NCBI GenBank assembly: GCA_014360805.1
Contig: JACIWU010000005.1
Coordinates: forward strand, 1,206-65,205
DNA from: Chloroflexota bacterium
Lineage (GTDB): Bacteria; Chloroflexota; Anaerolineae; DTLA01
DNA: 64,000 bases
Reading direction: 5' to 3'
The notes beneath the pieces were generated by a model that saw only the letters and a list, made by a program, of their open reading frames with translations, was not told where the DNA came from and made no database searches. A program made the position numbers and the translations under genes. Positions 11,019 through 47,693 of this stretch are shown piece by piece (the first letter of the stretch is position 1; every line of letters starts with the position of its first letter).

Positions 11019-11663
11019 ATGTACCGTCATCCCTACATTGCCATTGAAGGGCCCATCGGCGTAGGCAAGACCACGCTGGCCCGCCTTCTCCAGCCCGAAC
11101 TGGGCGCGTCGCTGCTGCTAGAAGTCTTTGAAGAAAACCCGTTTCTGAAGGACTTCTACCGCGACCGAGAGCGCTACGCCTTCCAGACGCAGATCTTCTT
11201 CCTGCTCAGCCGCTACCACCAGCAACACAAAGCCGTCCCCAAGGCGTTGGAAAAAGGCCCCCTCATCAGCGACTACACCTTCGCCAAAGACCGCATCTTC
11301 GCGCACCTGAACCTGCGCAACGAAGAACTGGCGCTGTACGAGCAACTCCACGCCGCGATGGCCGAGAAGATTCCCGTGCCCACGCTGGTCATCTACCTGC
11401 GCGCATCCTTGGACGCGCTGATGGAACGGATCGCCCTGCGCGACCGCCCCTACGAGCGCAACATGGACCGCGACTACATCCGCGAACTCAGCGAAGCCTA
11501 CGAGCGGTTCTTTGAGCATTATACCCAAAGTCCGGTTTTGACGCTAGACACGGACACCCTGAACTACGTCCGCAATTCCGACGACCTGAACCTGGTCCTG
11601 GAGCGAGTCCGAAGCGCCCTGCGCCACGCGCCGTACCAGCAGCCGCTCATTGAAATCCCGTAG
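11019..11663 (+). CDS. Deoxynucleoside kinase (dAK/dCK/dGK family), paralog 1
   Basis: IAIEGPIGVGKTTLARLL P-loop. dNK-family length and motifs (ERY..FQ, DRI). Confidence 0.8.
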   Translation: MYRHPYIAIEGPIGVGKTTLARLLQPELGASLLLEVFEENPFLKDFYRDRERYAFQTQIFFLLSRYHQQHKAVPKALEKGPLISDYTFAKDRIFAHLNLRNEELALYEQLHAAMAEKIPVPTLVIYLRASLDALMERIALRDRPYERNMDRDYIRELSEAYERFFEHYTQSPVLTLDTDTLNYVRNSDDLNLVLERVRSALRHAPYQQPLIEIP

Positions 11664-11721
11664 CCCCATACCCACCGGCAAGGACAGGTTCATCCAATTC
11701 CTCATGTGAGGCGACGAGAGC

Positions 11722-12357
11722 ATGGGCAAGTTTATCGCAGTGGCGGGGAATGTGGGCGTCGGCAAGTCCACGCTGACACACCTGTTGAGCGCGCGGCTGG
11801 GCTGGGAGCCGTTCTATGAAGCCGTGGACGACAACCCGTATCTGGCGGACTTCTACAGCGACATGCGGCGATGGAGTTTCCACTCGCAGATCTTCTTCCT
11901 GTCGCGCCGCCTGCGCCACCATCGGGAAATCCTCAGCCACCCCAATACGGTGATCCAGGACCGCAGCGTGTACGAAGACGCGGAAATCTTCGCCCGCAAC
12001 CTGTATCTCCAGGGGCACATGCAGGCCCGCGACTACCGCTGCTACCGCGAATTGTACGAGGTGCTGACCCAGTTCCTGCCCCCGCCGGACCTGGTCGTGT
12101 ACCTGCGGGCCTCGGTGCCCACGCTCCAGCATCGCATCGCGCTGCGCGGGCGCGACTTTGAACGCCAGATTCCCGACGAGTACCTGGCCCAGTTGAACAC
12201 CCTGTACGAGGACTGGATTGAAGGCTTCACCCTCTGCCCTGTGCTCACGGTTCCCGCCGACCAGTTGGACTTCGTGAAGTACAACTCGCACCTTGAGTTG
12301 ATCTGCGAGAAAATCCTAGACAAACTTCAGGGGAAGGAAGTCGTCGTCTTTGACTGA
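11722..12357 (+). CDS. Deoxynucleoside kinase, paralog 2 (tandem with 11019..11663)
   Basis: IAVAGNVGVGKSTLTHLL P-loop. About 35% identical to the upstream paralog by eye. Tandem dAK/dGK-like arrangement. Confidence 0.8.
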   Translation: MGKFIAVAGNVGVGKSTLTHLLSARLGWEPFYEAVDDNPYLADFYSDMRRWSFHSQIFFLSRRLRHHREILSHPNTVIQDRSVYEDAEIFARNLYLQGHMQARDYRCYRELYEVLTQFLPPPDLVVYLRASVPTLQHRIALRGRDFERQIPDEYLAQLNTLYEDWIEGFTLCPVLTVPADQLDFVKYNSHLELICEKILDKLQGKEVVVFD

Positions 12358-15284: not shown

Positions 15285-18014
15285 CTAGCGGCCTACTTTG
15301 GGAATCCACAGCCGATAGCGCGGCGTGGGCGTCGGACTTGGAGTCGGGCTAGGGGTTGGGCCGGGCGGCGTGCCCACGCTCACCTGGTCTATGACGGCCA
15401 CGGTGGGCCGCTGCGAGGAGTCCTGCCAGACGTTGAGAATCAACTGCACGGTGCGCCCGCGCCACGGCGAAAGGTCGTACACGAACAGTTGCCAGCCCGG
15501 CGTCGTCTGCCACACCGTGCGCGGCGGCATCGGCTCGTACCGCGTCGTGCCATCAATGAGGAGCACCTCCAGCCAGTCGTGGCCGGCCTCGCTCTCCAGG
15601 GTTACCACCTGGTACACAAGCGACAGGTACACCGGCGATTGCGTCTGCGGTATGGCGATGCTCTGGCTGACGGTGGAATTGCCGCCGCCGCCCAACTCCG
15701 GCTGGCCCACGAAGTCCTTGCCCAGCGCCAGCGACCGCAGGCCGGCGAACCCGGCGGTGTGAACCTGCGCGGGCGTACTCCCGCCAGGGGTCCAGCCCTC
15801 CAGCCCCGCCTCAAAATCCCCGTTGCTGACCAGGTTCACCCCAGGCGCGACGAACACGTCAAACCCCGCCACGCTTCCATCCAGCCGCAGATGGCGCGGC
15901 GACCAGGGGCTATACCCCAGCGCGTAGCCGCGGATGCCGTAGTCGCCCTTCGGAAGCCCCGCCACTTGCCACCAGCCCGACTCGTCGGCGGCGATGGTGC
16001 TCGGCATGCCCCAGGCGTTGGTTACAATCACGCTCCCGCCGGGCACCGGCGTGCCCAGGGGGTTCAGGATGCGCCCGCTGAGGACCGTGCTGGCAATCGG
16101 CGTGGGCGTCGGCGTGGCCGTGGGCTGGGGCGTTGCCGTCGGCGTGCTGGGCAGCGCGATGACGGTCTCGGTCTGCGCGGCGCGAGGCGTCGCTCCGGCG
16201 TTGCCGGCGCGGTCCACGCCGCGCGCCGCGAACCCATACGAATGCCCGGGCACGCCGCTGTAGGTCGCCGACGTGGCTTGCGTGCCCTGCAACCACAACA
16301 CCATCGGCCCGCCGTCCACGGACACGAACACATCGTAGGCGACGACGCCCGACCCCTCATCCGTTCCCTGCCAGGAGACCGTGAAACTCGTCGGGCTGTA
16401 CAGGGGAAGATCTTGCACGGTAACGACTGGCGGCGTAGTGTCCCGCTCCACCAGCATCAGCGGGCGACCGCCGATCATGTAGGTGATATGATCGGGCAGG
16501 TTGCGATTGGTGGCGGCAGGCAGCATCACCGTGTACGCCCCGTTCGTAGGGGTCAGAGGCTGCGCCGAGCCGTCCTGGCCAAGCGCCATAGCCTGGGTTC
16601 CCACCGCGCCCACCTGAACAACGACGGGCGACCCACGCGTGGCCCACAGGAACAGCACGCGCTCGCGCGTGTCGGGGCGATAGTAGGCGATCTCCTCGTG
16701 GTCGCCCTGAAGGTTGCGCCGCCAGAGGGGGATCGCCCCGTTGAGGTACGCGGCCGCCAGTTGGTAAGCCTTGTACGAGGGCCGAGGCGAATTGGGCGAC
16801 GAATGGCTCCGAAAACAGATGGCGTCGGCGGGGTTCCGGTACAGCCCGTAGGCATCGCCCACGTCGTTCGTGCCCGCGGGACTGTTGCCGCAATCGTCGT
16901 ACAATTGGAAATGGAAAATCCGCTCGGCGCCGGCGTAGAACCCGTAGGCGTAGTTCTGGATGATGTAAGCCGCCTGCTCCTCCATCGTGGCGCGGTACAG
17001 GCTGGCAGGGTCCCACGTGGGGCCTGGATAGTCGTTCCAGACCGGCACGCCGCTCTCGTTGATCCAGATGGCCTTCGCCCCCAGGCCGTACTTCTGGAGC
17101 AGCGTGCGCACGCGCCGCACCTGGTAGTATGTCTCATACGACGTGCTGTAGATGTGCAGAGGGAGGACGTCAAAGTACCAGCCATTGGCGTCGCGCTGCG
17201 TCCGCGCGGTGTCGGCCTTCATGACCTCCAGCAGGTTTTCCAGCCAGTTGGGCGTGATGTAGATGGCCAGGCCGCCCAAGAGCACCGTGCAATCCGGATC
17301 GGCGAACTTGGCCGCGATGTACGCCACCTTCAGTAGGCGATAGTAGTCCTGCACCGAGCCGTTCCAGAACAGGGCGTAGTCCGGCTCGTTCCAAATCTCC
17401 CAGTGGCGGATGCGCGGGGTGTAGCGCGCCACAGCCTCGTAAACAAACCTGGCCCACGGGTTGGCAGAGTTGACGCTCTTGCCCGGAGCCGGAATATCCG
17501 TGCCATCGCTGAAGATCGGCGCGTATAGATTCTTGGGCGCGGAACTGGCCGGGCTAATCGGTTGCCGCTCGCTCGGCCCGGATAGGGGCACCGGCCGCTT
17601 GCCCACCTGCGGCAGAGGCGCGCCGCTCTGCCCAGCCGTCGCGTACTGGGAAGGCGTGCCCAGCAGGATGGCGTTGGTCCTGAGTCCGTTGGCCTGATCG
17701 GACGCGACGACGCGGTCCACGGCGCTCCAATCAAAAGCGCCGCTGCTCTGCTCCACGTTCCCCCAGTAGATGGGCCAGCGGTTCCAGGCCGCGCCGGCGG
17801 CAACCGCCTTGCCATACCGCCCCGCGTCCGCGGGAGCCTCGGCGGAACTCACGAAACACAGGCCGAAGCGGTCGTTGAGTGGCACCGTCTGGCCGATGAC
17901 CTCATCCGGCTCGGGCGGGCGGAACGCGCCCACCGCGGCAGGCCCGGGCACCTGCGTGAGGGCCAGGCAGACGACGATGTACAGGAGCCCCAACCGCAAC
18001 CGACGCGATGTCAT
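15285..18014 (-). CDS. Secreted multidomain glycoside hydrolase (clan GH-A TIM barrel, GH5/GH39-like) with FN3-like, Thr/Pro linker and C-terminal carbohydrate-binding-like domains. Start re-placed at ATG 18014 (MTSRRLRLGLLYIVV...)
   Basis: Signal peptide. HWEIWNEPD catalytic-acid motif. Linkers PTPTATPQPTATPTPTPIAS and [14 protein letters not shown]. The 136-codon upstream extension in the track overlaps the next gene and is not coding. Confidence 0.7.
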   Translation of the reverse strand: MTSRRLRLGLLYIVVCLALTQVPGPAAVGAFRPPEPDEVIGQTVPLNDRFGLCFVSSAEAPADAGRYGKAVAAGAAWNRWPIYWGNVEQSSGAFDWSAVDRVVASDQANGLRTNAILLGTPSQYATAGQSGAPLPQVGKRPVPLSGPSERQPISPASSAPKNLYAPIFSDGTDIPAPGKSVNSANPWARFVYEAVARYTPRIRHWEIWNEPDYALFWNGSVQDYYRLLKVAYIAAKFADPDCTVLLGGLAIYITPNWLENLLEVMKADTARTQRDANGWYFDVLPLHIYSTSYETYYQVRRVRTLLQKYGLGAKAIWINESGVPVWNDYPGPTWDPASLYRATMEEQAAYIIQNYAYGFYAGAERIFHFQLYDDCGNSPAGTNDVGDAYGLYRNPADAICFRSHSSPNSPRPSYKAYQLAAAYLNGAIPLWRRNLQGDHEEIAYYRPDTRERVLFLWATRGSPVVVQVGAVGTQAMALGQDGSAQPLTPTNGAYTVMLPAATNRNLPDHITYMIGGRPLMLVERDTTPPVVTVQDLPLYSPTSFTVSWQGTDEGSGVVAYDVFVSVDGGPMVLWLQGTQATSATYSGVPGHSYGFAARGVDRAGNAGATPRAAQTETVIALPSTPTATPQPTATPTPTPIASTVLSGRILNPLGTPVPGGSVIVTNAWGMPSTIAADESGWWQVAGLPKGDYGIRGYALGYSPWSPRHLRLDGSVAGFDVFVAPGVNLVSNGDFEAGLEGWTPGGSTPAQVHTAGFAGLRSLALGKDFVGQPELGGGGNSTVSQSIAIPQTQSPVYLSLVYQVVTLESEAGHDWLEVLLIDGTTRYEPMPPRTVWQTTPGWQLFVYDLSPWRGRTVQLILNVWQDSSQRPTVAVIDQVSVGTPPGPTPSPTPSPTPTPRYRLWIPKVGR

Positions 18015-18037
18015 TTGCCCTTCCCGCTCTCCCTGGA

Positions 18038-18526
18038 TTAGAACTCCACGGTCTCGGCCTCGTGGGTTTCCGTATCGTACAACGCAAAAGTCGGCTTCCC
18101 GAAACGCCCCATCACCTCGCCTGGGTTGAGCACCAGGGTGCGCCCCTCCCACGTGTGGACGGCCTTGTGGGTGTGGCCGAAGAAGACGGCGTCGTACCGT
18201 CCCGACGGGGCGATGGCCGCGGCGATGTGCGGGTAATGGGTCAGCGCGATCTTCCGGCCGCCCAGTTCCAATTCCGCCAGGCCATCCGTGTACAGGCGAA
18301 CGCGCCCGCTCCCCGAGGCCACGCGGAGCAGAAGCGCCACGTCGCCGTCGTTGTTGCCCTGCATGACGTGGATCGGCCCCGCGAACCCGTCGGCCAGCAT
18401 CTTCAGCGAGAACGGCGCGCACAGGTCGCCGCAGAACAGGAGCACATCGGCCCCCTGAACCCGCCGCAGCGCCTTCTCCAGATTCCAGATGTTGTCGTGG
18501 CTATCGGACATGACCGCGATCTTCAT
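18038..18526 (-). CDS. Metallophosphoesterase, YfcE/MJ0936 family (start at MKIAVMSDSHDN)
   Basis: MKIAVMSDSHDN...GDLCAP...GNND...GHTH motifs of the calcineurin-like phosphodiesterase family. 163 aa. Confidence 0.75.
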   Translation of the reverse strand: MKIAVMSDSHDNIWNLEKALRRVQGADVLLFCGDLCAPFSLKMLADGFAGPIHVMQGNNDGDVALLLRVASGSGRVRLYTDGLAELELGGRKIALTHYPHIAAAIAPSGRYDAVFFGHTHKAVHTWEGRTLVLNPGEVMGRFGKPTFALYDTETHEAETVEF

Positions 18527-37462: not shown

Positions 37463-38740
37463 GTGGCGAAATTCATCATAGAGGGTGGGAACCGCCTACA
37501 CGGGCGGGTAACTCCGAGCGGCAACAAGAACGCGGCGCTGCCCATCATGGCGGCGTCGCTGCTGACGGATGAGCCTCTGATCCTGCACAACGTCCCCCGC
37601 ATCCGCGATGTGGAGACCATGCTCCAATTGCTGGTGGCGTCGGGTGTGGATGCCGAATGGATCGGCGAGCACGACCTGCGGCTTCACGCGCGGGATGTGC
37701 GGTCTGCCCATCTGGATCCCGTGCTGTGCAAGGAGATTCGCGCGTCCATCCTGCTGGCGGGACCCATGCTGACGCGGCTGGGCAGGGTGGAACTGCCGCC
37801 GCCGGGGGGCGATGTTATCGGGCGCAGGCGGGTGGACACGCACTTCGTGGGCCTGGGGTCGCTGGGGGCCGAGTTCGCCATTGGCCAGACGTTCCGCCTG
37901 TCCACCACGGGCCTGCGCGGCGCCGACATCTTCCTGGACGAGGCCAGCGTTACCGGCACCGAGAACGTGCTCATGGCCGCCAGCCTGGCCAAAGGCACCA
38001 CCATCATCCGCAACGCGGCGTCGGAACCGCACGTGCAGGACCTGGCCCGCTGCCTGAACCAGATGGGCGCCCAGGTGCAGGGCATCGGCACCAACACGCT
38101 CTTCATCCAGGGCGTGGACCGTCTCCACGGGGCCGAATTCACCATCGGCTCCAGCCACGTGGAGGTGGGGAGTTTCATCGGCCTGGCGGCGGCCACCAAG
38201 AGCGAACTGACCATCACCGACGCCGTCCCCGACGACCTGCGCATGATTCGGCTCATGTTTGAGCGGCTCGGCGTGCACATAGAAATTCGCGACAACGAGG
38301 TCTTCGTGCCGGCGGATCAGCCGCTGGAGATCATGCCCGACCTGGGCGGGGCGATTCCGAAAATAGACGATGCGCCCTGGCCCGGCTTCCCCGCCGACCT
38401 GATGAGCATCGCCCTGGTGGTCGCGACACAGGCGAAGGGCACGGTCCTTTTCCACGAGAAGATGTTTGAGAGCCGCCTGTACTTCGTGGACAAACTCATC
38501 AGCATGGGCGCGCACATCATCCTGTGCGACCCGCACCGCGCCGTCGTCGTGGGGCCGGCCCAGTTGCACGGCGAGCGGCTGGAAAGCCCAGACATCCGCG
38601 CCGGCATGGCGTTGCTCATCGCCGCCCTGTGCGCCGAAGGGCAGAGCGAGATTCGCAACATCGGCCAGATAGACCGCGGCTACGAGCGCATTGAGGAGAA
38701 ACTCCAGGCCCTGGGGGCGAACATCCGCCGCATAGAGTAG
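37463..38740 (+). CDS. murA: UDP-N-acetylglucosamine 1-carboxyvinyltransferase. GTG start at 37463 with AAGGAG 7 nt upstream; the track's 148-codon upstream extension is rejected
   Basis: [33 protein letters not shown]. The catalytic Cys region is replaced by Asp (MurA families vary). 425 aa, EPSP-synthase fold. Confidence 0.88.
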
Positions 38741-38746
38741 CCGCGC

Positions 38747-39409
38747 CTACGGCTCCTGATAGCGGATGACCTTGGCCGGGACGCCGACCACCACGGCGTT
38801 GTCGGGCACATCGTCTATGACGACCGCGCCGATGCCGATCACCGCGTTGTCGCCAACGCGCAGGCGCGCGCCTGGCCCCCATTCGGGCGTCATCACCGAC
38901 GCGCCAAGCCCCACCAGCACGTTCCGCCCGATGTCAATCCGCGCGCCGATAGTTGCGCCCGACGAGATGAGCGCGTTGTCGCCGATGACCGTGTCGTGCG
39001 TTACGATGGCGCCGGCGTCTATGTACACGTTGTTGCCGATGACCGGGTCCACGTACAGCGTAACCCCGGCGCCGATGATATTCCCCCGCCCCATCCGCAC
39101 GTCCTTAGAAATGTGGGCCGTCGGGTGGATGGCGTTGATGATCTCAAACCCCATCTGGGCCATCCATTCGGACAGGCGACCGCGCGCCTTGTTGTCGCCG
39201 ATGGCGCAGATGGCGCCCGCCACGCCATCGGCCAGGAGCGCGGGGAGCCTGTCGGGCCCGCCGACAACCGGCACGCCCCGCACTTCCTTGCCCCACATGT
39301 CGCGGTTGTCGTCCACCATCGCCACGACCCGAACGTCTTCTCGGTAACTGAGGATGTAGGCCACCATCTTGCCCACATTCCCCGCTCCGTACACGACAAC
39401 GCGCATCAC
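38747..39409 (-). CDS. Sugar N/O-acyltransferase, NeuD/PglD family (left-handed beta-helix)
   Basis: N-terminal Rossmann-like VVVYGAGNVGKMVAYIL followed by hexapeptide repeats. NeuD/PglD architecture. Confidence 0.7.
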   Translation of the reverse strand: MMRVVVYGAGNVGKMVAYILSYREDVRVVAMVDDNRDMWGKEVRGVPVVGGPDRLPALLADGVAGAICAIGDNKARGRLSEWMAQMGFEIINAIHPTAHISKDVRMGRGNIIGAGVTLYVDPVIGNNVYIDAGAIVTHDTVIGDNALISSGATIGARIDIGRNVLVGLGASVMTPEWGPGARLRVGDNAVIGIGAVVIDDVPDNAVVVGVPAKVIRYQEP

Positions 39410-39561
39410 CGCATCACCTCGGGCATGGATTCTATCGCGAAGGCAACGGGCCGGGCCGACTCGCCGTCATGTACCCGCAGAGCGCGCGAAGCACGCAGAA
39501 AATCCCTCAAGACTTCTCGGCGGTCTCTGCGCGCTCAGCGGTTGAGAGGGAACCCGCCGAC

Positions 39562-40179
39562 TCACCCCGTCTGCGAAATCTCGTCGGGGACGCCGTCGTT
39601 GTACACGCCCTCGCGCCGAAGCACGACCCCCACCGTCTGCCACAGGATTTTCAGATCAAGGGCGTAGGACCAATGATCCACGTACCAGACATCGCGCTCT
39701 ATGCGCTGGGGCCAGGTGAGTTGATTCCTGCCGTTGACCTGGGCCAGGCCGGTTACGCCCGGGCGCACCAGCAGTCGCCGCCGCTGGAAGTCGTTGTACT
39801 TCTCCACCTGGTAGGCCAGCGTGGGCCGCGGCCCCACCAGGCTCATGTCGCCCACCAGGATGTTGAAGAACTGCGGCAGTTCGTCCAGGCTGTACTGGCG
39901 CAGGAAGCGGCCCACCCTCGTTACGCGGGGGTCGTTGTCGTGGGTGTGATACCCCAGCGGGTGCGCGGTGGCGTTCTGCACCATGGTGCGAAACTTGAAG
40001 ATGCGGAAGATGCGCCCATCCTTGCCCACGCGCTCCTGCCGGAAGAAGACCGGGCCGGGCGAATCCAACTTGATCGCAACCGCGATGACGAGGAACACCG
40101 GCGCCAGGAGCGCCAGGCCGACGACCGAGACCACGATGTCCGTCGCCCGTTTGAGAAACCGCTGAAACGCCACGCTCAT
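39562..40179 (-). CDS. Undecaprenyl-phosphate sugar phosphotransferase, small PglC/WbaP-C-terminal type (bacterial sugar transferase family). Start at MSVAFQ, abutting the upstream gene's stop
   Basis: Single N-terminal TM. KFRTM...[21 protein letters not shown] catalytic motifs. Confidence 0.8.
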
Positions 40180-41597
40180 CGCCTGCAACCGTACTGCGCC
40201 ACGCACCGGAAGCCCTCGTAGGCGCTGGAGTTGTCCACGGCGCTGTCCAGTTTCACCTGATTCACGATGGCCACCAACTCGTCGCCGGGCGCGCCTTCCA
40301 CGACCACGGAGTACTGGGCGTTGTTGGCCAGGTCGGCGTCGCTATACGTCCAGGGCCGCTCGGCCACCGACCGTCCCGGAGCCAGGGCGTAGTTCTTGAG
40401 GCCGGCGTTGGGCCACTCGGTGCCGGTGTTGAAGTCGTAGTAACGCACTGTTACCGTGGCCGTAACCGCGCCCACGTTCTGGATGATGATGGGCGTGATG
40501 TAGCCGTAGTAGCCCTTGACCACGTTGGGCAGGAACACGTACTGCGCGCCTTCGTTGAAGCCGTTGTAGGCCGAGCCGTCCTTGTGATCGGCCAGGTTGC
40601 GGTTCTGATTGACGATGGCCACCAGTTCGTCGCCCGGCTGCCCCCGCACCACGACGGAATACTGCTTGTTGGGCGGCAGAACGTTGTCGGGGTAGGTCCA
40701 CGGGCGCTCGGGCAGGGAGCGGCCCGGCTTCAGTTCGTAGTTCTTCTTGCCGGCCAGCGGGTAGAACGTGCCATCAAACCCGTAGTACTCCACGTTGACG
40801 TAGGCCGTTGTCGTGCCGACATTCTGGATGATGGCGGGGGTGATGTAGCCCGCGTACCCCTTGACCATATTGGGCAGGTACACATTCGGCCCGCCCGACG
40901 GGAAGCCCGAATAGGCCAGGTCGGTGTCGCGCCCGACCTGGTTCACCGCGCCGACGATGGACTGCCCGACGTCCGCCGTCGCCACCACCGCGTACTGTTT
41001 GTTGGTGGGCAGTTCGGAGTTGGGGGCAACCGCCGGGTCGTACTCGTAACTAACGTTGGGCGGCAGGACGATCACGCGCTTGGCGCTCTCAATGGGGTTG
41101 CCGGTATTGAAGTCAAAGAACTCAATGGTAACCGTGGCGTCGGTGTCGCCGCTGTTCTGGATGTAGAACGGCGTGCTGAAGCCATAGTAGTGCTTGGTGA
41201 TGTTGGGCAGGAAGACCTTGCGCGTGCCCGGTTCCAGGGCGTTGTAGGCCATCTCGCGGCCCGTGGCCAGTTCGTTGACCACCCCCGCCAGCGGACGGGT
41301 GCCGTGGATGACCATGGAGTACATGCCGTCGGTGAGAGCGGGGTCGGGGTTGAGATAGGGGCGGACGGCGCGCGCGCGGCCCGGCTCCAACTGGAAGGTC
41401 TCGCGGGCCGAGGGGATGTACGCGCTGTCGGACATGCGGTAGTAGTCCACGAAGACCGTGGCCGTAGCGTCGCCCATGTTCTGCACGACGACCGGCGAGC
41501 GCCAGACCATCCCCGGCGGGTAACTGCCCTGTCCCTGCGCCGCGATGGGGAGGAGCAGGACGATCACGGCCACGGCGACGACCAGCGACTTTCTCAT
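40176..41597 (-). CDS. Secreted hypothetical protein with four tandem repeats of about 95 aa. Start at ATG 41597 (MRKSLVVAVAVIVLLLPIAAQG), with AAGGAGGG RBS
   Basis: Signal peptide. Repeat core (V/F)(F/Y)LPN(I/M/V)(T/V)K.Y.G..TP..IQN.G...A.V.(I/V)E(F/Y)(F/Y).F. The 56-codon upstream extension in the track is rejected. Confidence 0.65.
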   Translation of the reverse strand: MRKSLVVAVAVIVLLLPIAAQGQGSYPPGMVWRSPVVVQNMGDATATVFVDYYRMSDSAYIPSARETFQLEPGRARAVRPYLNPDPALTDGMYSMVIHGTRPLAGVVNELATGREMAYNALEPGTRKVFLPNITKHYYGFSTPFYIQNSGDTDATVTIEFFDFNTGNPIESAKRVIVLPPNVSYEYDPAVAPNSELPTNKQYAVVATADVGQSIVGAVNQVGRDTDLAYSGFPSGGPNVYLPNMVKGYAGYITPAIIQNVGTTTAYVNVEYYGFDGTFYPLAGKKNYELKPGRSLPERPWTYPDNVLPPNKQYSVVVRGQPGDELVAIVNQNRNLADHKDGSAYNGFNEGAQYVFLPNVVKGYYGYITPIIIQNVGAVTATVTVRYYDFNTGTEWPNAGLKNYALAPGRSVAERPWTYSDADLANNAQYSVVVEGAPGDELVAIVNQVKLDSAVDNSSAYEGFRCVAQYGCRR

Positions 41598-41643
41598 GAC
41601 GCCCTCCTTGTGTGCGCCCCCCAAGTTCCCCCTTGCCGCGCCA

Positions 41644-41672
41644 TTATAGCGTGCCCCGCGAAAAATGACAAC
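41644..41672 (-). promoter_or_regulatory. Candidate promoter for the repeat-protein gene: -35 TTGTCA, 17 bp spacer, -10 TATAAT, within cGTGCTATAATgg
   Basis: About 40-nt leader to the RBS and ATG. Confidence 0.5.
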
Positions 41673-41700
41673 TGGGTGCGGGCTGCGCGAGCGTTCCCAC

Positions 41701-41729
41701 CTGCGACGCACCTCGGAGGTGCGTCGCAG
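41701..41729. repeat. Family C palindrome ctgcgacgcacctcggaggtgcgtcgcag
   Basis: 12-bp perfect arms around a ctcgga loop. Related copies at 43567, 47952 and 56558. Confidence 0.7.
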
Positions 41730-41749
41730 GTTGAGCCGCATAGCGAGCA

Positions 41750-41803
41750 CAGGGCGGGTTCCCATTACCTGCGCCCCCGGCGGCTATGGAAAGCCGCCCT
41801 ACG
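41750..41803. repeat. Family A double-hairpin repeat (inverted orientation, first hairpin degenerate) with the shared cgaataacacgaat flank to 41850
   Basis: cagggcgggttcccattacctgcgcccccggcggctatggaaagccgccctacg. Confidence 0.75.
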
Positions 41804-41855
41804 TGCCCACATTTATTCCCATTCGCGTGGATTCGTGTTATTCGTGGATAAGCGC

Positions 41856-43124
41856 CTACCGAATCACCTCCACCCCGCCCATGTACGGGCGCAGCACCTC
41901 GGGCACCACAATGCTCCCGTCGGCCTGCTGGTAGTTTTCCATCACCGCGATCATGACGCGGGGCAGCGCCAGTCCCGACCCGTTGAGCGTGTGCACGTAC
42001 TCGGGTTTTGCGCCCGCCTCGCGGCGGAAGCGAATGTTGGCGCGCCGCGCCTGGAAGTCCAGGAAGTTGGAGCATGAGGAGACCTCCAGCCACTCGCCGC
42101 AGCCCGGCGCCCACATCTCCACGTCGTACTTGGCAGCGGCGGTGAAGGACAAATCTCCCGTGCACATCTGCACCACGCGGTGCGGAATGCCCAGTTTCCG
42201 GCACACGTCCTCGGCGTTGTCAATCAGGGTTTCCAGTTCCTGCATGGACGTTTCGGGCGCGACGATCTTCACCATCTCCACCTTGTCAAACTGATGGCCG
42301 CGCTTGATGCCCCTCACGTCGCGGCCCGCGCTCATCTTCTCGCGTCGCCAGCACGGCGTGTACGCCACATAGTACAGAGGCAGCGTGCCGGGGTCCAGGA
42401 TCTCCTCGCGGTGCAGGTTGGTTACCGGCACCTCGGCGGTGGGCACCCACCATAGGTCGTCCTCCACGTCGTGGTAGAGGTTCTCGCCGAACTTGGGCAA
42501 CTGCCCCGTGCCCCACAGGCACTTCTCGTTGACCACGAACGGCGGATAGACCTCGGTATAGCCGTGTTCGTTCACGTGCAAATCCAGCATCCACGCGATG
42601 AGGGCGCGCTGGAGCCGAGCGCCCAGTCCCCTGAGCACGTAGAACCGCGCGCCGGCGATCTTCACGCCGCGCTCAAAGTCCAGGATGCCCAGCGCAGGCC
42701 CCAAATCCCAGTGGGGCAGCGGCTGGAAGTCAAACTGCCGCGGCTCGCCCACGGTGCGGACGATCACGTTGTGGGTCTCGTCGGGGCCCACGGGGACGCC
42801 GGGCGCCGGCATGTTGGGCACTTCGTACAGCGCCGCCGTCAGCCGTTCGTCCACGGCCTTCAGTTCCGTTTCCAGTTCGCGGATTTGGTCGCCCACCTGG
42901 CGCATCTCGGCCACCAACTGCTCCCGCTGGGCGGCGTCCTTGATGCGGGGAATCTCCCTGGACACCGCGTTGCGCCGCGCCCGCAGGCTTTCCACCACCT
43001 GCAGCAGTTCGCGCCTGCGCCGGTCCAGTTGCAGGATTTCGTCAATGGGCGCGGTGGTGTTCAAGTCCACCAGCGCCTGCTTCACCTCGTCGGCGTGCTC
43101 GCGTATGAAGTTGAGGTCTAGCAT
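41856..43124 (-). CDS. serS: Seryl-tRNA synthetase. Start at ATG 43124 ([15 protein letters not shown]) with AAGGAGGG RBS; the 155-codon in-frame upstream extension is rejected
   Basis: Class II aaRS motifs 1-3. N-terminal coiled-coil arm. 423 aa. Confidence 0.93.
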
Positions 43125-43198
43125 TTTCTCCCTCCTTGACACAACGACTCTCCGGATTGTCCATGCCGCACGGCGCGGCCCCGAAAAACGAAAAGGCC

Positions 43199-43216
43199 CC
43201 CATCCGAAAGGACGGG
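43199..43216 (-). terminator. Leader hairpin CCCGUCC-UUUC-GGAUGGG (extendable to 9 bp) followed by GGCCUUUUCGUUUUUC, about 60 nt upstream of the serS ATG. Candidate attenuator/terminator
   Basis: Read on the minus-strand transcript. Confidence 0.45.
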
Positions 43217-43484
43217 AGCCTCGGCTACCGTGTTGCCACCTTCCTGCGCCTGCCCCTCGCGGAGCAGACCTCAGTGGGTCGGCGCGCGTCCGACCCTGCC
43301 CTGTAACGGGGGCCACCGGCTCGGCATACTCCGGGCGGATGCCTCCGCCCGTTTCCGCCTGCGACTCCGGAGTGCTTTTCGGCCGGGCCGTGCTGCCGCT
43401 TTCCACCTGCTGCGGCTCTCTGGGAGCCGTGCGCCGCGACCTACTCGTCTCCATCACCGTCGTTGCTATACGCTTGTTGTCAAC

Positions 43485-43513
43485 ATTATGGCGCGAACCC
43501 GCGTCGGTGTCAA
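43485..43513 (-). promoter_or_regulatory. Candidate serS promoter: -35 TTGACA, 17 bp spacer, -10 CATAAT. Implies a 5' leader of about 350 nt
   Basis: Read on the minus strand. Confidence 0.45.
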
Positions 43514-43566
43514 ATCGGCCCCGCGCCAGGCCGGGTTCTATTTTGTGTTGGCGTGCGAGGTGCGAC

Positions 43567-43602
43567 GCACTTCCGGAAGTGCGTCGCACCTCGGATCAGG
43601 GT
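43567..43602. repeat. Family C: perfect 36-bp palindrome gaggtgcgacgcacttccggaagtgcgtcgcacctc
   Basis: Exact reverse-complement identity over 36 nt, checked by hand. Confidence 0.85.
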
Positions 43603-43634: not shown

Positions 43635-44939
43635 TTATCGCCCGCCCGCGCCGCGGACGTCGCTAGGAGCCTCTGGCGCCGGAGGCGTTCGCGCGGACGC
43701 CCAGGGGACGTAGATTTCCCAGCGCTCGCGCAGGTAGGGGCGCTGGCGGATGAACGCCTCCGCCTGGCGCGCCACCACCCGCTCGGTCTCCTCAACGGAC
43801 ATCCCTTCCGTCTCCTGAAGGAACGCCAGTTGTCGGGCGGCGCATAGCGGGATGAGGGATTCCACCACCCGGTCGGGGTCGGCCTCTCCCTTGTTGTACA
43901 CGGTAACGAAGTCGTACACACAGCGCGCCCAAAGGTCGTCGGGGAAGCGGAAGCCCTCGGCCGGTTGATTCTGCAGTTCGCGTATCGCGTCCAGGTGCTC
44001 CGGGGTCAGAGCCACCTGCCACAGGCGGCGGTGGCGCTTGGATGGCTGGCGGAACCGCTCGCCAAGGTACGCCTCGGTGAGGATGCCCCGGTCCGGCGCT
44101 TCCAGCGGCGTGCTGCCGAGGACGGGCGTGGGCTGCACCGCCGGGAAGGTAAGCCACGTCTTGCGGAACACGTATGCTATGCGGAACAGCGTCCCCGCCA
44201 TCTGCGCGAACGCCTGATCGGTGGTGGAGGACGGTTCGCGCGATTCGTGCCTGCGCGTGCCCAGCGCGACCTGGCCGATGCGTCGCCCCTCCTGGACGGC
44301 GACGGCGGTCATCCAGACGCCCACGCCCGCCCTGGCCACCTCCGTCTCCCAGACATCCTTGTCGGCGAAGTGGCCTGCCAGTTCGCCCGACACGCCCAGC
44401 ACATCGGCGGTGGGCTGGCGCACATCGCGCCCCAGGAGCGCACGGAGGAGGGGATAGGCGATGAGGTCTATGGGGCCGCTCTCGGTGCGCGGATAGGTGT
44501 AGTACGGGGTAACGTATTCGTACTCGCCCGAGAGGATGGGGCCGGCGAGAGCCTGCACCCACCAGGGCGGCACGCCCTTCAACTCTCCGTCCAGGATGAT
44601 GCAGGCGTCGGCCTCCAGGGCCATGGTCATCTGGAAGATGGCGCGCACTGCGCTGCCCCGCCCCGTAACGCCGTGGTAGCCGGTTACGATGCGCTTCACG
44701 TTGTCGGGCATGGGCGGGGCCGATGCCGCCGCCACGGTGTCGTCGGTGGAACCCCCATCGGCCACCACGAGCACCGTACGCAGGTCCGGATAGTGCGCGG
44801 CGAGGCCCATGGACACCTGTTGCACAAGGGCGGCAATCGTTTTCGCGTTGCGGTAGGCAGGGATGCCTGCGACAAGGTCTGCCCTGCCGATCTGCCGGAT
44901 GCGCCGCCTGGCGTCGGCCCTGAGGGCTGTCTCAAACAT
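43635..44939 (-). CDS. GT-A fold glycosyltransferase (family-2-like / glycosyl-3-phosphoglycerate-synthase-like)
   Basis: N-terminal LVAGIPAYRNAKTIAALV...LVVADGGSTDDT is the nucleotide-sugar binding part of GT-A enzymes. 434 aa. Confidence 0.55.
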   Translation of the reverse strand: MFETALRADARRRIRQIGRADLVAGIPAYRNAKTIAALVQQVSMGLAAHYPDLRTVLVVADGGSTDDTVAAASAPPMPDNVKRIVTGYHGVTGRGSAVRAIFQMTMALEADACIILDGELKGVPPWWVQALAGPILSGEYEYVTPYYTYPRTESGPIDLIAYPLLRALLGRDVRQPTADVLGVSGELAGHFADKDVWETEVARAGVGVWMTAVAVQEGRRIGQVALGTRRHESREPSSTTDQAFAQMAGTLFRIAYVFRKTWLTFPAVQPTPVLGSTPLEAPDRGILTEAYLGERFRQPSKRHRRLWQVALTPEHLDAIRELQNQPAEGFRFPDDLWARCVYDFVTVYNKGEADPDRVVESLIPLCAARQLAFLQETEGMSVEETERVVARQAEAFIRQRPYLRERWEIYVPWASARTPPAPEAPSDVRGAGGR

Positions 44940-44968: not shown

Positions 44969-46351
44969 CTAGCCCACGAGGACAAACGCAAGGTCGTTCA
45001 CGTTCGTTCCCGTGGGGCCGGTTATCACAGGATCTCCCAGAGCCTGGAAGAATCGGTACGAGTCATTGTTGCGCAGGAAGTCCTTGGCCACGAGGCCGGC
45101 TGCGCGGGCGCGGGCCACCGTCTCGCCGGTAACAAAAGCGCCCGCCGCATCGGTGGGGCCGTCGCCGCCGTCGGTCGCCAGAGTGGCCAAAGCGACGCCG
45201 CTCCACCCCTCCAGGGCGATGGCCGCCGCCAGGGCCAGTTCCTGATTGCGGCCGCCTGTGCCGTCGCCCGTTACGGTAACGGTGGTCTCGCCGCCGGTGA
45301 CGATGCACGCAGGGAGCGGGACCGGATTACCGCTGTGCACGCACTCCTTGGCGATGGCCGCCAAGACACGGGCCACATGGCAGGCCTCGCCTTCCAGGTA
45401 CGTCGTCAGCAGGAGCGCGTTGTATCCCCGGCTGCGCGCCTCGGCCACCGCCGCCGACGCCGCGATTTCGTTGCTGCCGATGATGACATTGTGCACGTTG
45501 CGGAAGGCGATGTCGCCCTCCTTGGGGGTTTCGGGGATAGCGCCCGCCAGCCCCGCTTGCAGGCGCCCCCGGATGCTCGGATTCAGGCCGCGGATGAGGT
45601 TGTAACGCTCCAGAATGTCCCAGGCATCCGAAAACGTGGTCGGGTCGGACACCGTCGGGCCCGAGGCGACGACATCCAGCGGGCTGCCCACCACATCCGA
45701 CAGGATGAGCGAGATAGTCGTGGCCGGATACGCCAGCCGCGCCAGTTGGCCTCCCTTGACCAGCGACAAATGCTTGCGCACGCAGTTGATTTCGTTGATG
45801 GTCGCGCCCGACTTCAGCAGAGCCTGGGTCAGTTCCTGCAAGTCGGCCAGGTGTATGCCGCTGGCGGGAAGGGTCAACAGCGCCGACCCGCCCCCGGAGA
45901 TGAGGCAGATGACAAGGTCGCGAGGCCCAAGCGGCTCCAACAGGTCGGCGATTCGCTGCGCTCCGTGAAGCCCCGCCTCATCGGGCGTCGGATGGCTCGC
46001 CTCCACGATCTGGATGCGGCGGCCTTTGCCCCCAAAGACCTGCCCCCGCTTGGCGATCACCAGGCCCTCCGCGATGCGGTCGCCCAGGATCTCTTCCACC
46101 GCCTCGGCCATGGATGGCGTCGCCTTGCCCGCCCCGACCACCACAATCTTGCGAAACTGCCCCAGGTCATAGGCTCGGTCCTGCACGTAAAGCGTATCAT
46201 CGGCGAGGCGCAGCGCGGTCCGTATCGCCAGGCGGGGATCCACCGCGTCCAGCGCCGCGCGCATCAGCGCGGCCGCGTCCTCGCGGTGGCGGGTCTCCGT
46301 AGGGTTCTCTGCAATGGGGCGCACAAACCCGAAGGGCGTTGCCACGTTCAC
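44969..46351 (-). CDS. Glycerate 2-kinase, MOFRL family
   Basis: 460 aa. IVVVGAGKATPSMAEA, ICLISGGGSALL, VASGPT. Length and motifs fit GckA/TtuD-type glycerate kinase. Confidence 0.8.
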   Translation of the reverse strand: MNVATPFGFVRPIAENPTETRHREDAAALMRAALDAVDPRLAIRTALRLADDTLYVQDRAYDLGQFRKIVVVGAGKATPSMAEAVEEILGDRIAEGLVIAKRGQVFGGKGRRIQIVEASHPTPDEAGLHGAQRIADLLEPLGPRDLVICLISGGGSALLTLPASGIHLADLQELTQALLKSGATINEINCVRKHLSLVKGGQLARLAYPATTISLILSDVVGSPLDVVASGPTVSDPTTFSDAWDILERYNLIRGLNPSIRGRLQAGLAGAIPETPKEGDIAFRNVHNVIIGSNEIAASAAVAEARSRGYNALLLTTYLEGEACHVARVLAAIAKECVHSGNPVPLPACIVTGGETTVTVTGDGTGGRNQELALAAAIALEGWSGVALATLATDGGDGPTDAAGAFVTGETVARARAAGLVAKDFLRNNDSYRFFQALGDPVITGPTGTNVNDLAFVLVG

Positions 46352-46352
46352 C

Positions 46353-47693
46353 TCACTGCTGCCGGATTTTGTTCAGAGCCTGCTCGGCGGCCTGTCGGGG
46401 CGCGAGTTGGCCCTTGAGCACCTGACTGAGGGCGGTGTGCAGCGCCGACGCAACGGCGGGCGTCCTCAACGTCGATGGGCATGGGGTAGCCGCCTGGGCC
46501 ATGCCTAGCAAGAACTCGCTGTGGGCGGCGGACAGCCCTGCCAGAGGCCACGCGCCGGCCTGAGTGGGCACCAAATGGGCGGCCTCGCACCACGCCGATT
46601 GCGGCCCGACCTGGAGCACCCACGCCAGGAACTGGACAGCGGCCTGCTGCCTTTCGGGCGTCGGCGATACGATGGCCCACGACCACACGCGCGCCAGGGC
46701 GATGGGGCGCCCGTCGGCAGTGGGAAGGGCCGCCAAGTCCGCGTCGGCCAAGGCGGATGGATGGCCCCAAACCTGCGACGCCCAGACCTCGGCGAAATCG
46801 GCCCCGCCGGCCCTGTACAGATCCCAGACCTCGTCGCGATCCAAAGACAGCACCTGCGGGGCCAGCACGCCCTGATCGGCCAGCCCCCGATACGCCTCCA
46901 GAACGCGCGCGAGAAGCCGACTGTCCAGTGCCGCCTTGCCCTCTTCATCCACGAGCGCCCCGCCCAGGCCCACGTACTGGGCCAGCAGCGACCGCACCGC
47001 GGCATCCTCATCGCCGACGGCGAAGGCGTAGCGGCCCCCGCTTTCGGCGATGGCGCCCAAGGTGAGGGGCAAGGGCAGCGTCATGGGAGTACGATACACA
47101 AGGAGCGGGAAGTCCATCGCGAACGGGACGCCGCTCCCTGCCGCCTGGACATTCGCGAACAGCGCCCCGCGCACAGAGGGCGCCAGCACGTCCACGGGCT
47201 GGACGAGGCCCAGAGCCGCAACCTGCTCCAGGCTATCTTCGTCCAGCAGGATCAAGTCGGGGAGATAGGCCGGGGCAACCCGGCTGGCCCCAGCCAGCAA
47301 ATCCACCATGCCACCTTTGCCGTAGGTCTCCTTGACCGAGACGTGCACGCGAATGCCGGGATAGGCCTCGGCGAACCCCTGCAGGAGCGCGGCGTTGTCG
47401 GGCTGGGCAGCAAAGGCGAATTCGGACGACACCCAGATGTACAGGGTCATCTGCGATTGCACAGGCGTGGGCGAAGCCTGGCGCGCCGGAGAGGTGGGCA
47501 CCGTCGGCGCGGGGCCGGGGGCCGGCGTCTGGGTCGGCGCGGGGGCCGCCCCGCCACGACACGCGGCCAGCGCCACTGCCAGCGCGAGAGCCGCCACCGT
47601 CGTCAGCACGCTCGTGCGCGCCCCTCTGTTGGAGGCCGCGCAAATCGTGGGTTTCGGTTCCAACGCACTCCCAACCGCGCAATCCTGAGTCAT
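46353..47693 (-). CDS. Extracellular solute-binding lipoprotein (ABC transporter SBP, family-1-like)
   Basis: Lipobox LALAVALAAC. Pro/Thr/Ala linker. Alpha/beta core with a TLYIWVSSE start typical of SBP_bac_1. Confidence 0.55.
   Translation of the reverse strand: MTQDCAVGSALEPKPTICAASNRGARTSVLTTVAALALAVALAACRGGAAPAPTQTPAPGPAPTVPTSPARQASPTPVQSQMTLYIWVSSEFAFAAQPDNAALLQGFAEAYPGIRVHVSVKETYGKGGMVDLLAGASRVAPAYLPDLILLDEDSLEQVAALGLVQPVDVLAPSVRGALFANVQAAGSGVPFAMDFPLLVYRTPMTLPLPLTLGAIAESGGRYAFAVGDEDAAVRSLLAQYVGLGGALVDEEGKAALDSRLLARVLEAYRGLADQGVLAPQVLSLDRDEVWDLYRAGGADFAEVWASQVWGHPSALADADLAALPTADGRPIALARVWSWAIVSPTPERQQAAVQFLAWVLQVGPQSAWCEAAHLVPTQAGAWPLAGLSAAHSEFLLGMAQAATPCPSTLRTPAVASALHTALSQVLKGQLAPRQAAEQALNKIRQQ

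Follow-up and report, generated by a model that had tools for sequence, protein, structure and literature searches.

The locus analysed here lies in a 64-kb stretch of Chloroflexota DNA (the window) and raises the question of whether a repeat protein encoded beside two glycan enzymes carries a surface glycan or binds one. The original prediction had put forward the former as a hypothesis, with the repeat protein as an S-layer-type surface glycoprotein and the two enzymes, of PglC and PglD type, starting its attached glycan. An exact-sequence look-up identified the protein as MBC7257950.1, a 'hypothetical protein' of a Chloroflexi bacterium MAG, and a Pfam scan found no catalytic domain in its 473 aa. 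It is called the tetrad below. The features of the module, in the direction of its transcription, are as follows:

41703..41727, no strand: palindrome GCGACGCACC-TCSGA-GGTGCGTCGC, in the interval from the serS stop to the promoter
41643..41671, minus: sigma-70-type promoter, TTGTCA-17 nt-TATAAT (direct reading and promoter scan)
41603..41609, minus: RBS AAGGAGG, 5 nt ahead of the ATG at 41597 (direct reading)
40176..41597, minus: tetrad CDS, 473 aa (ORF)
41529..41597, minus: predicted Sec signal peptide, about aa 1-23 (sequence features)
41223..41528, minus: repeat 1, aa 24-125, hallmark Asn N40 (alignment and AF2)
40890..41222, minus: repeat 2, aa 126-236, LPNITKHYYG...IQNSG, hallmark Asn N148 (alignment and AF2)
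40545..40889, minus: repeat 3, aa 237-351, hallmark Asn N259 (alignment and AF2)
40200..40544, minus: repeat 4, aa 352-466, hallmark Asn N374 (alignment)
39562..40179, minus: phosphoglycosyltransferase CDS, 205 aa, PglC-size, polyprenyl-phosphate type (PF02397, TIGR03025)
39410..39561, minus: 152-nt intergenic gap between phosphoglycosyltransferase and acetyltransferase (direct reading and scan)
38747..39409, minus: acetyltransferase CDS, 220 aa, NeuD/PglD/VioB family (PF17836 and PF00132, TIGR03570)

The promoter and strong RBS proposed for the repeat gene were both found on the minus strand, with the −35 TTGTCA at 41671-41666, the −10 TATAAT at 41648-41643 and a 17-nt spacer. The site matches the consensus at 11 of 12 positions and was the sole promoter-like site in a scan of 38600-42000. 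The −35 (TTGCCA in relatives), spacing, −10 and 5′UTR are kept in L010-L012, where the flanks diverge, and the AAGGAGG is invariant across five relatives. Together, the consensus promoter and strong RBS suggest an abundant protein, as would be more usual for one with a structural role. The co-orientation and abutment claimed for the module hold for the phosphoglycosyltransferase, whose ATG (40179-40177) overlaps the tetrad stop TGA (40178-40176) as ATGA on the minus strand, but not for the acetyltransferase, which lies 152 nt away. A scan of that gap (57 to 206 nt in relatives) found no promoter-like or terminator-like site. As predicted, murA and a SAM_HAT/DUF62 gene lie just beyond the module, with murA on the plus strand and convergent with the acetyltransferase gene. 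The palindrome, which recurs at 43562-43587, could be either a REP-like element or the serS terminator hairpin and is outside the module proper; it is found in L010 and L012 and missing from L011 and L001. An Rfam scan of the whole window at the gathering threshold gave no match, and there is therefore no recognised leader or riboswitch.

The tetrad begins with MRKSLVVAVAVIVLLLPIAAQG, in which an MRK n-region is followed by a 16-residue hydrophobic core and AQG. No lipobox Cys was seen on reading this N-terminus, and the AF2 pLDDT of the region is below 50. Secretion through Sec is thus predicted. Internal alignment confirmed the four repeats, although the measured unit is about 102-115 aa rather than the ~95 aa first proposed. 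Repeats 3 and 4 are 62% identical to each other and 41-42% identical to repeat 2, while repeat 1, which lacks the first strand, is the most divergent (25-36% to the others). A lineage-specific tail follows repeat 4.

The repeats had been said to match no nameable family, but they belong to the ASRT/TM1070 (ASRAH) superfamily by Foldseek, profile and hallmark Asn. In Foldseek, the AlphaFold (AF2) model of the protein (pLDDT 93.6, pTM 0.90) reached probability 1.00 with 1nc7, 2ii8 and 2ii9 only, at TM 0.63-0.72. DSSP assigned eight strands to each of repeats 2-4 and seven to repeat 1, and both results fit an eight-stranded beta-sandwich of TM1070/ASRT topology. An enzymatic fold would have counted against the original prediction; the predicted fold is not enzymatic. 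When a single-repeat profile was run against 177,635 PDB sequences, its matches were confined to TM1070 (E 0.0016) and ASRT (E 0.09). The hallmark of the superfamily is a nearly invariant Asn that ends strand 2 and fixes a tight turn to strand 3 (PMC2739507). In an alignment of 48 repeats, the sole nearly invariant columns are an Asn and the Gly two residues on (the QN.G motif); this Asn aligns with TM1070 N32, is present in all four repeats, and as N40, N148, N259 and N374 is invariant or nearly so among 65 homologues. The superfamily has a conserved Trp where strand 1 begins; by sequence, repeats 2-4 open this strand with VF/VY-LPN, in which an aromatic residue other than Trp is the candidate counterpart. 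With Pfam the similarity is marginal: PF07100 (ASRT) scores 20.3 bits, under its gathering cut-off of 25 for family membership, the sub-threshold match covers aa 146-210 in repeat 2, and only 3 of the 65 homologues match at E ≤ 0.01.

Solo ASRAH proteins are tetramers, in which the dimer interfaces wall the clefts, and the non-solo families are dyads or tetrads (PMC2739507). Four tandem domains in one chain follow this pattern, and the pTM of 0.90 indicates that in the model they have a fixed mutual arrangement, probably packed as a compact single-chain pseudo-tetramer. The tetrad shares with TM1070 (PDB 1NC7) and ASRT (PDB 2II7/2II8; PF07100, formerly DUF1362) the (I/L)PN..K.GY lead-in, the Asn-x-Gly turn after strand 2 and four domains per functional unit. 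Those proteins, however, are cytoplasmic, single-domain homotetramers of about 125 aa, whereas the tetrad consists of four diverged copies in one predicted secreted chain, and the His and Cys of the ASRT ligand signature SHEshChhN are replaced. On the model, then, we regard the repeat protein as four ASRT/TM1070-like beta-sandwich domains joined in a single exported chain. Binding of a sugar or small molecule in the cleft on the sheet face is a prediction, and sugar binding is the sole function that has been predicted in print for the fold (PMC2739507). Our literature search found no later paper using the term 'ASRAH' and none on this tetrad protein in Chloroflexi. The reported partners of ASRT are a rhodopsin and DNA, and we know of no ASRAH domain with demonstrated sugar binding.

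Two extracytoplasmic families also resemble the tetrad. In Roseiflexus, Chloroflexus and Herpetosiphon, an N-acetylmuramoyl-L-alanine amidase is joined to secreted tetrads of ASRAH domains (family 2 of De Souza, Iyer and Aravind 2009). By description these proteins are from the same phylum, secreted, built of four tandem domains and in a cell-wall context, but the 473-aa protein of the window is a tetrad alone, with no amidase domain by Pfam. An Amidase_2 neighbour in L023 was considered as a link to them and rejected, its repeats being unrelated (hhalign probability 0.6%). An actinobacterial ASRAH dyad lipoprotein has links to WhiB, an inactive zincin and a glycosyltransferase, and its proposed ligand is the polysaccharide that this last enzyme makes (De Souza et al. 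2009, family 3). This dyad is probably Pfam DUF5719, which weakly matches 11 of the 65 tetrad family members. Like the tetrad it is extracytoplasmic and genetically tied to glycosyltransferases, and its zincin association recurs in the tetrad family as Peptidase_MA_2 fusions; it differs in being a dyad with a lipobox Cys rather than a tetrad with a plain signal peptide, and in its partner genes.

The tetrad family comprises 1,920 clusters at E ≤ 1e-30, annotated as hypothetical only, and 6,710 clusters of 50% identity at E ≤ 0.001. Among the best 150 representatives the commonest architecture is a stand-alone tetrad of ~430-500 aa; fusions to Peptidase_MA_2 (zincin), a PD40 propeller and CarboxypepD_reg also occur. 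In the main subfamily, all 35 informative metagenome loci (those flanked by 2.5 kb or more) place the gene in a cassette of GT4-GT4-GT2-methyltransferase-methyltransferase-UPF0104 (LPG_synthase_TM), and the gene set is kept after rearrangement in L025, L089 and L103. Other subfamilies lie in PMT_2/GT2/GT4 clusters, following two PMT/PMT_2 GT-C genes, in clusters of three GT4 with GT2 and methyltransferase, or after the peptidoglycan hydrolases SpoIID and Amidase_2. All stand-alone subfamilies sampled beyond the close relatives are accompanied by envelope-glycan or peptidoglycan genes, and across Chloroflexota the relatives sit almost always inside cell-envelope glycan clusters. By contrast, the neighbours of a paralog that shares 63% identity and occurs in the same MAGs are unrelated genes (PHP, M28 peptidase). 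The functional link between the tetrad and glycan biosynthesis is strongly backed by gene neighbourhoods conserved across the family. Three residues ahead of the Asn, a cleft-facing position carries a hydrophobic residue in the window group but a polar one in the main subfamily, and a shared ligand therefore cannot be assumed for the two.

The regularity of these neighbourhoods could also mean that the tetrad is a factor for extracytoplasmic glycan assembly or export rather than a static wall-bound protein; it could, for example, act as a chaperone, read chain ends or work with the membrane UPF0104 or ABC-transporter component. In the main subfamily its neighbours are always the LPG_synthase_TM-like membrane protein on one side and a small lipoprotein on the other, in a cassette order that is stable over 43-92% identity, and in L022 (wzm-PAP2-tetrad-wzt-methyltransferase-GT4) it is set between wzm/PAP2 and wzt with gaps of only 24 and 29 nt. 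Such a role has no precedent for the ASRAH fold, however, and we consider it unlikely, as the promoter and RBS suggest the abundance of a structural protein, stand-alone paralogs occur without any glycan genes, and the peptidase and propeller fusions suggest a targeting module. The small lipoprotein itself gave only sub-threshold CarboxypepD_reg matches in Pfam (E 6e-4 and 1e-6), and BLASTP against the CarboxypepD_reg domain of Limnocylindria tetrads gave nothing; the former is a hint of a gene-fusion link between the two.

The enzymes of the window bear on whether the tetrad is itself glycosylated. The 205-aa phosphoglycosyltransferase has a full Bac_transf domain (PF02397, E 8.6e-73, profile positions 1-178 of 179), exceeds the TIGR03025 cut-off (311 against 295.6 bits, over the C-terminal catalytic part of the model only) and has a hydrophobic stretch at aa 8-46; with its length of ~200 aa and N-terminal hydrophobic segment, it is a predicted small monotopic enzyme of the PglC type. 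The 220-aa acetyltransferase, in which PglD_N (PF17836, E 2.4e-12) is joined to a left-handed beta-helix (Hexapep, PF00132, E 6.8e-17), scores 184.2 bits with TIGR03570 (NeuD/PglB/VioB; cut-off 160.8) and is a predicted NeuD/PglD/VioB sugar N-acetyltransferase. A monotopic phosphoglycosyltransferase is likewise paired with a NeuD/PglD-family acetyltransferase in Campylobacter (PglC/PglD) and in the Neisseria PglB fusion, where the pair serves protein glycosylation. S-layer structural genes adjoin their glycosylation clusters in Geobacillus and Paenibacillus, and in the G. stearothermophilus SgsE/WsaP and P. alvei slg clusters the gene for an abundant secreted protein adjoins either wall-glycan genes or one for an initiating enzyme of Bac_transf type, a 'surface protein plus its glycan' logic that the tetrad module shares. 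These parallels favour the glycoprotein, as do the predicted secretion of the tetrad, its strong conserved promoter and RBS, its overlap with a PglC-size enzyme next to a PglD-family one, and the subfamily that follows PMT/PMT_2 genes, members of a family that O-mannosylates proteins.

The remainder of the Campylobacter pathway (PglE/F, further glycosyltransferases, flippase and oligosaccharyltransferase) is nevertheless absent from the window. A Pfam scan of its roughly 50 ORFs over 64 kb found no aminotransferase, dehydratase or oligosaccharyltransferase, in line with the original prediction, which had placed PglE/F and the oligosaccharyltransferase outside it, and no other glycosyltransferase except a weak GpgS-like gene; nor does the window hold an O-antigen-ligase-like gene or a Campylobacter-type pgl locus (PglB, PglE, PglF and further glycosyltransferases). 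S-layer systems use SLH domains for anchoring to wall polysaccharide and have an O-oligosaccharyltransferase in their glycosylation clusters, whereas the tetrad has an ASRT-like fold with no SLH or other S-layer domain (Pfam, NCBIfam) and no Ser/Thr-rich linkers. Judged by domains and ligase, it would not be classed as an S-layer (glyco)protein. None of its three N-X-S/T sites has D/E at −2 (the D/E-X-N-X-S/T sequon), and the sequon residue N132 is structural and common to cytoplasmic TM1070. For O-glycosylation, the count of such sites is uninformative either way. The pairing with PglC/PglD is confined to close relatives, and in other proteins of the family the tetrad is an accessory part attached to enzymes. 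Of the proposed glycoprotein module, the link to glycan biosynthesis thus stands, while an S-layer-type protein whose attached glycan is started by PglC/PglD is improbable. Carrying a glycan and binding one are not mutually exclusive.

The history of the pairing raises a further alternative, that adjacency is meaningless here and a deletion placed a wall or secreted protein of unrelated function beside a stray PglC/PglD pair. The ATGA abutment is the product of a recent deletion of ~92 nt, as in L001 the two genes are still 120 nt apart and a separate promoter-like site, TTGACA-17-TACAAT, precedes the phosphoglycosyltransferase; coupling of that gene to the tetrad is therefore not ancestral. 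In the window the PglC/PglD genes are an isolated pair among housekeeping genes and not part of a larger LPS/EPS locus, which would have spoken against the original prediction, and the module's isolation, like the paralog found elsewhere without glycan genes, would fit chance. Even so, none of the six genomes at 83-97% identity departs from the order tetrad, phosphoglycosyltransferase, acetyltransferase, the pairing being found in close relatives only (at least 83%), and the distant stand-alone subfamilies sampled are all accompanied by envelope-glycan or peptidoglycan genes, a repeated independent re-association that is hard to obtain by chance. We therefore consider a meaningless adjacency very unlikely.

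For the tetrad, binding to a surface glycan is more probable than carrying one, because its fold is predicted to bind sugar and its relatives lie in envelope glycan clusters. The recurrence of the four-domain unit as a non-catalytic part of proteins with a zincin peptidase or a PD40 propeller likewise fits a binding module better than an acceptor. With about even confidence, we propose that it is a non-catalytic envelope carbohydrate-binding protein that recognises the polyprenol-built glycan of its companion genes; the gene order, promoter conservation, fold, hallmark Asn, family size and conserved neighbourhoods are shown, whereas secretion, pseudo-tetramer packing, sugar binding and the identity of the ligand as the neighbouring genes' product are inferred. 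Its own strong promoter would place the tetrad and the PglC-size phosphoglycosyltransferase in one transcript, probably with the NeuD/PglD-type acetyltransferase. The two enzymes would make an N-acetylated amino-sugar and commit it to undecaprenyl phosphate, and the tetrad, exported by Sec, would fold into a four-domain ASRAH pseudo-tetramer. Glycan binding could then retain or organise the tetrad on the glycan, or escort the glycan outside the membrane. The module in the window is an ordinary small envelope operon and not a new glycosylation pathway.

More tentatively, and with doubt prevailing, the secreted stand-alone tetrads may belong to an undescribed Chloroflexota envelope system and act in it as a dedicated receptor or scaffold for the glycan. 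GT4-GT4-GT2, two methyltransferases, the UPF0104 protein, the tetrad and the small lipoprotein would form this conserved system, in which a methylated surface glycan or glycolipid would be built and then decorated with an abundant single-chain 'tetrameric lectin'. The window would show a derived form of the system, rewired to a glycan that PglC/PglD initiate. If true, this would be a wall-anchoring principle unlike SLH, LysM or choline-binding modules.

Sediments, hot springs and wastewater all harbour abundant Chloroflexota, whose cell envelope is poorly understood. A large protein family annotated as hypothetical only now has a structural identity, and the secreted stand-alone tetrad adds a fourth architecture to the ASRT superfamily, one that is tied to a sharply conserved glycan-biosynthesis cassette. 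It provides a testable handle on the ligand of the ASRT fold, a question since 2009, and on the organisation of Chloroflexota surface glycans.

Three genes lie in the same orientation on the minus strand at 38747-41672, as originally predicted: a repeat protein of 473 aa (hereafter the tetrad), a phosphoglycosyltransferase (PGT) of 205 aa and an acetyltransferase (AcT) of 220 aa. The features of the tetrad gene are as follows.

40176-41597, minus strand: tetrad coding sequence, 473 aa, N-terminus MRKSLVVAVAVIVLLLPIAAQG
41671-41666 (TTGTCA), 17-nt spacer, 41648-41643 (TATAAT), minus strand: promoter, 11 of 12 consensus positions
5 nt upstream of the tetrad ATG, minus strand: ribosome-binding site AAGGAGG, read from the sequence
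40178-40176 (tetrad stop TGA) and 40179-40177 (PGT ATG), minus strand: ATGA overlap, read from the sequence

The N-terminus looks like a Sec signal peptide and has no lipobox. The TTGTCA-17-TATAAT site was the only promoter-like site found in a scan of 38600-42000. Its −35/−10 pair, the spacing and the 5′UTR are kept in three related MAGs despite diverged flanks, which supports a real promoter. Translational abutment, predicted for the whole module, was found for PGT but not for AcT, which follows after a 152-nt gap in which no promoter-like or terminator-like site was seen.

Judging from the overlap, the coupling of tetrad and PGT in the window is real. In L001, a related metagenome locus (83% identity), the tetrad ends in ...GFGRTP and a stop, and PGT follows after a 120-nt gap carrying TTGACA-17-TACAAT (junction alignment; L001 9390-9525). 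The window and three closer relatives lack about 92 nt at this junction (window 40176-40206). This deletion removed the original stop and the intergenic TTGACA-17-TACAAT site, and extended the tetrad frame into the ATGA overlap by a C-terminal tail that holds the protein's only two Cys. The coupling is thus recent, rather than a conserved design feature.

PGT matched Bac_transf (PF02397, E 8.6e-73, Pfam) and exceeded the NCBIfam TIGR03025 cut-off; because this match is confined to the C-terminal catalytic part of a longer model, PGT is a small, PglC-size enzyme. AcT contains PglD_N and hexapeptide regions and scored above the TIGR03570 (NeuD/PglB/VioB) cut-off. Both enzymes are typical of their families, and no new glycosylation pathway was evident within the window. 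In a Pfam scan of the entire 64 kb (about 50 likely genes), the expected murA was found on the plus strand, convergent with the module, with the SAM_HAT (DUF62) gene beyond it. Housekeeping genes surround the module: nuo, deoxynucleoside kinases, holB, groEL, gyrB, sigA, an ABC transporter, serS, recA, recX and RNase Y. The same scan found no aminotransferase, dehydratase or oligosaccharyltransferase, again as predicted, and no further glycosyltransferase except a weak GpgS-like gene. Four other genes in the window deserve mention.

43635-44939, minus strand: GpgS-like protein
44969-46351, minus strand: glycerate-2-kinase-like (DUF4147/MOFRL) gene
46353-47693, minus strand: solute-binding protein
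15285-18422, minus strand: 1,045-aa protein with a GH39-like region and a CarboxypepD_reg domain

The GpgS-like protein (434 aa) matched glucosyl-3-phosphoglycerate synthase NF010496 only below cut-off (E 6e-13). Its gene and the glycerate-2-kinase-like gene are kept in L001 and in a second related locus, L011, and L001 also has the solute-binding protein; they may form a candidate glucosylglycerate-type pathway, with no established tie to the tetrad module. The 1,045-aa protein may be a secreted glycoside hydrolase. A palindrome, GCGACGCAC-N7/8-GTGCGTCGC, occurs twice (41703-41727 and 43562-43587), each copy just 3′ of a stop, that of serS or that of the 434-aa gene; shuffled sequence gave 0 matches. 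The copy at 41703-41727 is present in the related loci L010 and L012 and absent from L011 and L001. The palindrome could be a REP-like sequence, or a terminator hairpin that lacks a T-run. A leader of about 360-400 nt precedes serS, 3′ of TTGACA-17-CATAAT (43125-43512, minus strand); no T-box or other known RNA was found in the whole window at the Rfam gathering threshold.

The repeats had been described as about 95 aa long and as matching no nameable family. They measured about 102-115 aa, and structure and profile comparisons placed them in a known superfamily. Pfam gave sub-threshold matches only, to Mannosidase_ig and ASRT (20.3 bits vs a cut-off of 25). An AlphaFold2 model built with 65 homologues was very confident (mean pLDDT 93.6, pTM 0.90) and all-beta, with eight strands in each of repeats 2-4, the high pTM indicating a fixed mutual arrangement of the four domains. 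Foldseek returned a probability of 1.00 for TM1070/ASRT structures only, and a profile of 48 single repeats, run against 177,635 PDB sequences, found only TM1070 (E 0.0016) and ASRT (E ~0.09). The only near-invariant residues across all repeats are an Asn and a Gly two residues later, in a QN.G motif. This Asn (N40, N148, N259 and N374) aligns with TM1070 N32, and is the hallmark of the 'ASRAH' superfamily of De Souza, Iyer and Aravind (PMC2739507).

Fold and superfamily were thus already known, from structures of 2003 and 2007 and the 2009 analysis (PMC2739507). According to the latter, solo ASRAH members are tetramers whose dimer interfaces form cleft walls, all other members are dyads or tetrads, and sugar binding is predicted on the basis of context and of a pocket seen in 1NC7. 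The same analysis describes a secreted Chloroflexi family in which a tetrad is fused to muramoyl-alanine amidase and, from Actinobacteria, a dyad lipoprotein with a link to a glycosyltransferase (PMC2739507). Within this framework, the fold, the sequence profile and the hallmark Asn identify the window protein as a superfamily member: an ASRAH tetrad that stands alone, is predicted to be secreted and most likely reproduces the TM1070 tetramer within one chain. It belongs to none of the three described families: unlike the solo family (Pfam ASRT), it falls below threshold and lacks the His/Cys ligand signature, and, unlike the amidase-fused Chloroflexi tetrads, it carries no amidase.

When 1.84 billion cluster representatives were searched exhaustively with HMMER, 6,710 proteins reached E<=0.001; the number reaching E<=1e-30 was 1,920. 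The window tetrad is identical to MBC7257950.1, a 'hypothetical protein' of a Chloroflexi MAG, and all its named relatives are likewise 'hypothetical'. Most members stand alone at 430-500 aa. Limnocylindria members carry an N-terminal CarboxypepD_reg domain, fusions of about 835 aa have a Peptidase_MA_2/zincin region C-terminal to the tetrad (P0149-P0156; L024 139-2646), and in a 34%-GC MAG labelled Actinomycetota a PD40 propeller precedes a C-terminal tetrad (L018 7868-11317). At another locus, L008, a separate PD40/Tricorn gene lies directly 3′ of the tetrad. All named members are Chloroflexota except P0107, which NCBI lists as 'Candidatus Methanomethylicaceae archaeon'; a binning error or a transfer may explain this label.

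Orthologs of 83-97% identity retain the order serS, tetrad, PGT, AcT and convergent murA. At 43% identity the tetrad is preceded by PMT_2, GT2, PMT and GT4 genes. One such cluster (L006) has a second, shorter ASRAH-repeat gene (11274-12305, 353 aa) 2 kb 3′ of the tetrad, with a B12-binding radical SAM gene between them. At 35% identity, three GT4 genes, a GT2 and a methyltransferase lie upstream and another GT4 downstream. In the main subfamily (25-29% identity), the tetrad follows GT4-GT4-GT2-methyltransferase-methyltransferase-LPG_synthase_TM; 80 more metagenome loci were retrieved, and tblastn detected cassette members in all 35 that had at least 2.5 kb of flank. The gene set is identical but rearranged in orientation in three loci (L025, L089 and L103). 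In this subfamily the membrane protein of the cassette usually lies about 1 kb 5′ of the tetrad, and a small gene lies about 0.3 kb 3′. The three small products examined (L004 9481-10053, L009 9419-10021 and L025 8525-8974; 149-200 aa) look lipoprotein-like: each has a signal peptide with a lipobox-like LVGC, FSSC or LYSC, then a linker rich in Pro and Thr, and at the C-terminus a beta-rich domain. Pfam found only sub-threshold similarity to CarboxypepD_reg. The small protein may anchor the tetrad to the membrane or act as its partner. The Limnocylindria tetrad has wzm/PAP2 on one side and wzt, then a methyltransferase and GT4, on the other, with gaps of 24-29 nt; a 597-aa subfamily has SpoIID and an Amidase_2 protein upstream in two unrelated contigs.

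There are exceptions. MAGs carrying the window orthologs have, at a second locus, a 59-63%-identical paralog (L014 9878-11353; L015; L016; L021 8001-9398) located between PHP/ASCH genes and an M28 peptidase, and the sequence available on either side holds no glycan genes; the enzyme-fused tetrads also depart from the glycan-gene context. Even so, the neighbourhoods conserved across subfamilies make the tie to envelope-glycan or peptidoglycan genes a property of the family. Partner genes vary by subfamily; only the window lineage pairs the tetrad with PglC/PglD. That the pairing is a meaningless adjacency in this genome is very unlikely, since tetrads have become associated with glycan genes repeatedly and independently.

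The link to glycan biosynthesis in the original prediction is therefore real. Its other part, that the tetrad is a glycoprotein substrate or S-layer protein, is unproven and, in our view, improbable: the PglC/PglD pair and the PMT genes beside one subfamily speak for it, but no transferase to protein, S-layer domain or acceptor-like sequence feature was found. It is compatible with glycan binding, and is less likely than a glycan-binding envelope protein. The latter, which we hold with about even confidence, would be exported, fold into a compact four-domain pseudo-tetramer and bind the envelope glycan produced by the genes it travels with. In the window genome this glycan would be a polymer whose synthesis the co-transcribed PglC-size enzyme starts on undecaprenyl phosphate, with an N-acetylated amino-sugar that the NeuD/PglD-type AcT would help to supply. 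The fold, the hallmark Asn, the tandem arrangement of four domains and the conservation of promoter and neighbourhoods are observed; export, tetramer-like packing, sugar binding and the nature of the ligand are inferred. Reuse of the tetrad beside or fused to wall-acting enzymes, zincin peptidases here and amidases in the literature (PMC2739507), is the pattern expected if the module serves in targeting or binding. At a position that faces the cleft, three residues ahead of the Asn and equivalent to C29 of TM1070, the window group has hydrophobic residues (V, Y, I and I) and the main subfamily has polar ones (Q/N); this might reflect a separate ligand for each set of partner genes. That the tetrad is instead an export or assembly factor, and not a static wall-bound protein, we consider doubtful.

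The tetrad module is not a categorically new system. The searchable literature held no description of the stand-alone secreted tetrad, its family size or its near-obligate GT4/GT2/methyltransferase/UPF0104 cassette. With the present work, a large dark family of Chloroflexota has a solid assignment by structure and gene context, which opens a way to test what ASRT-like domains bind.
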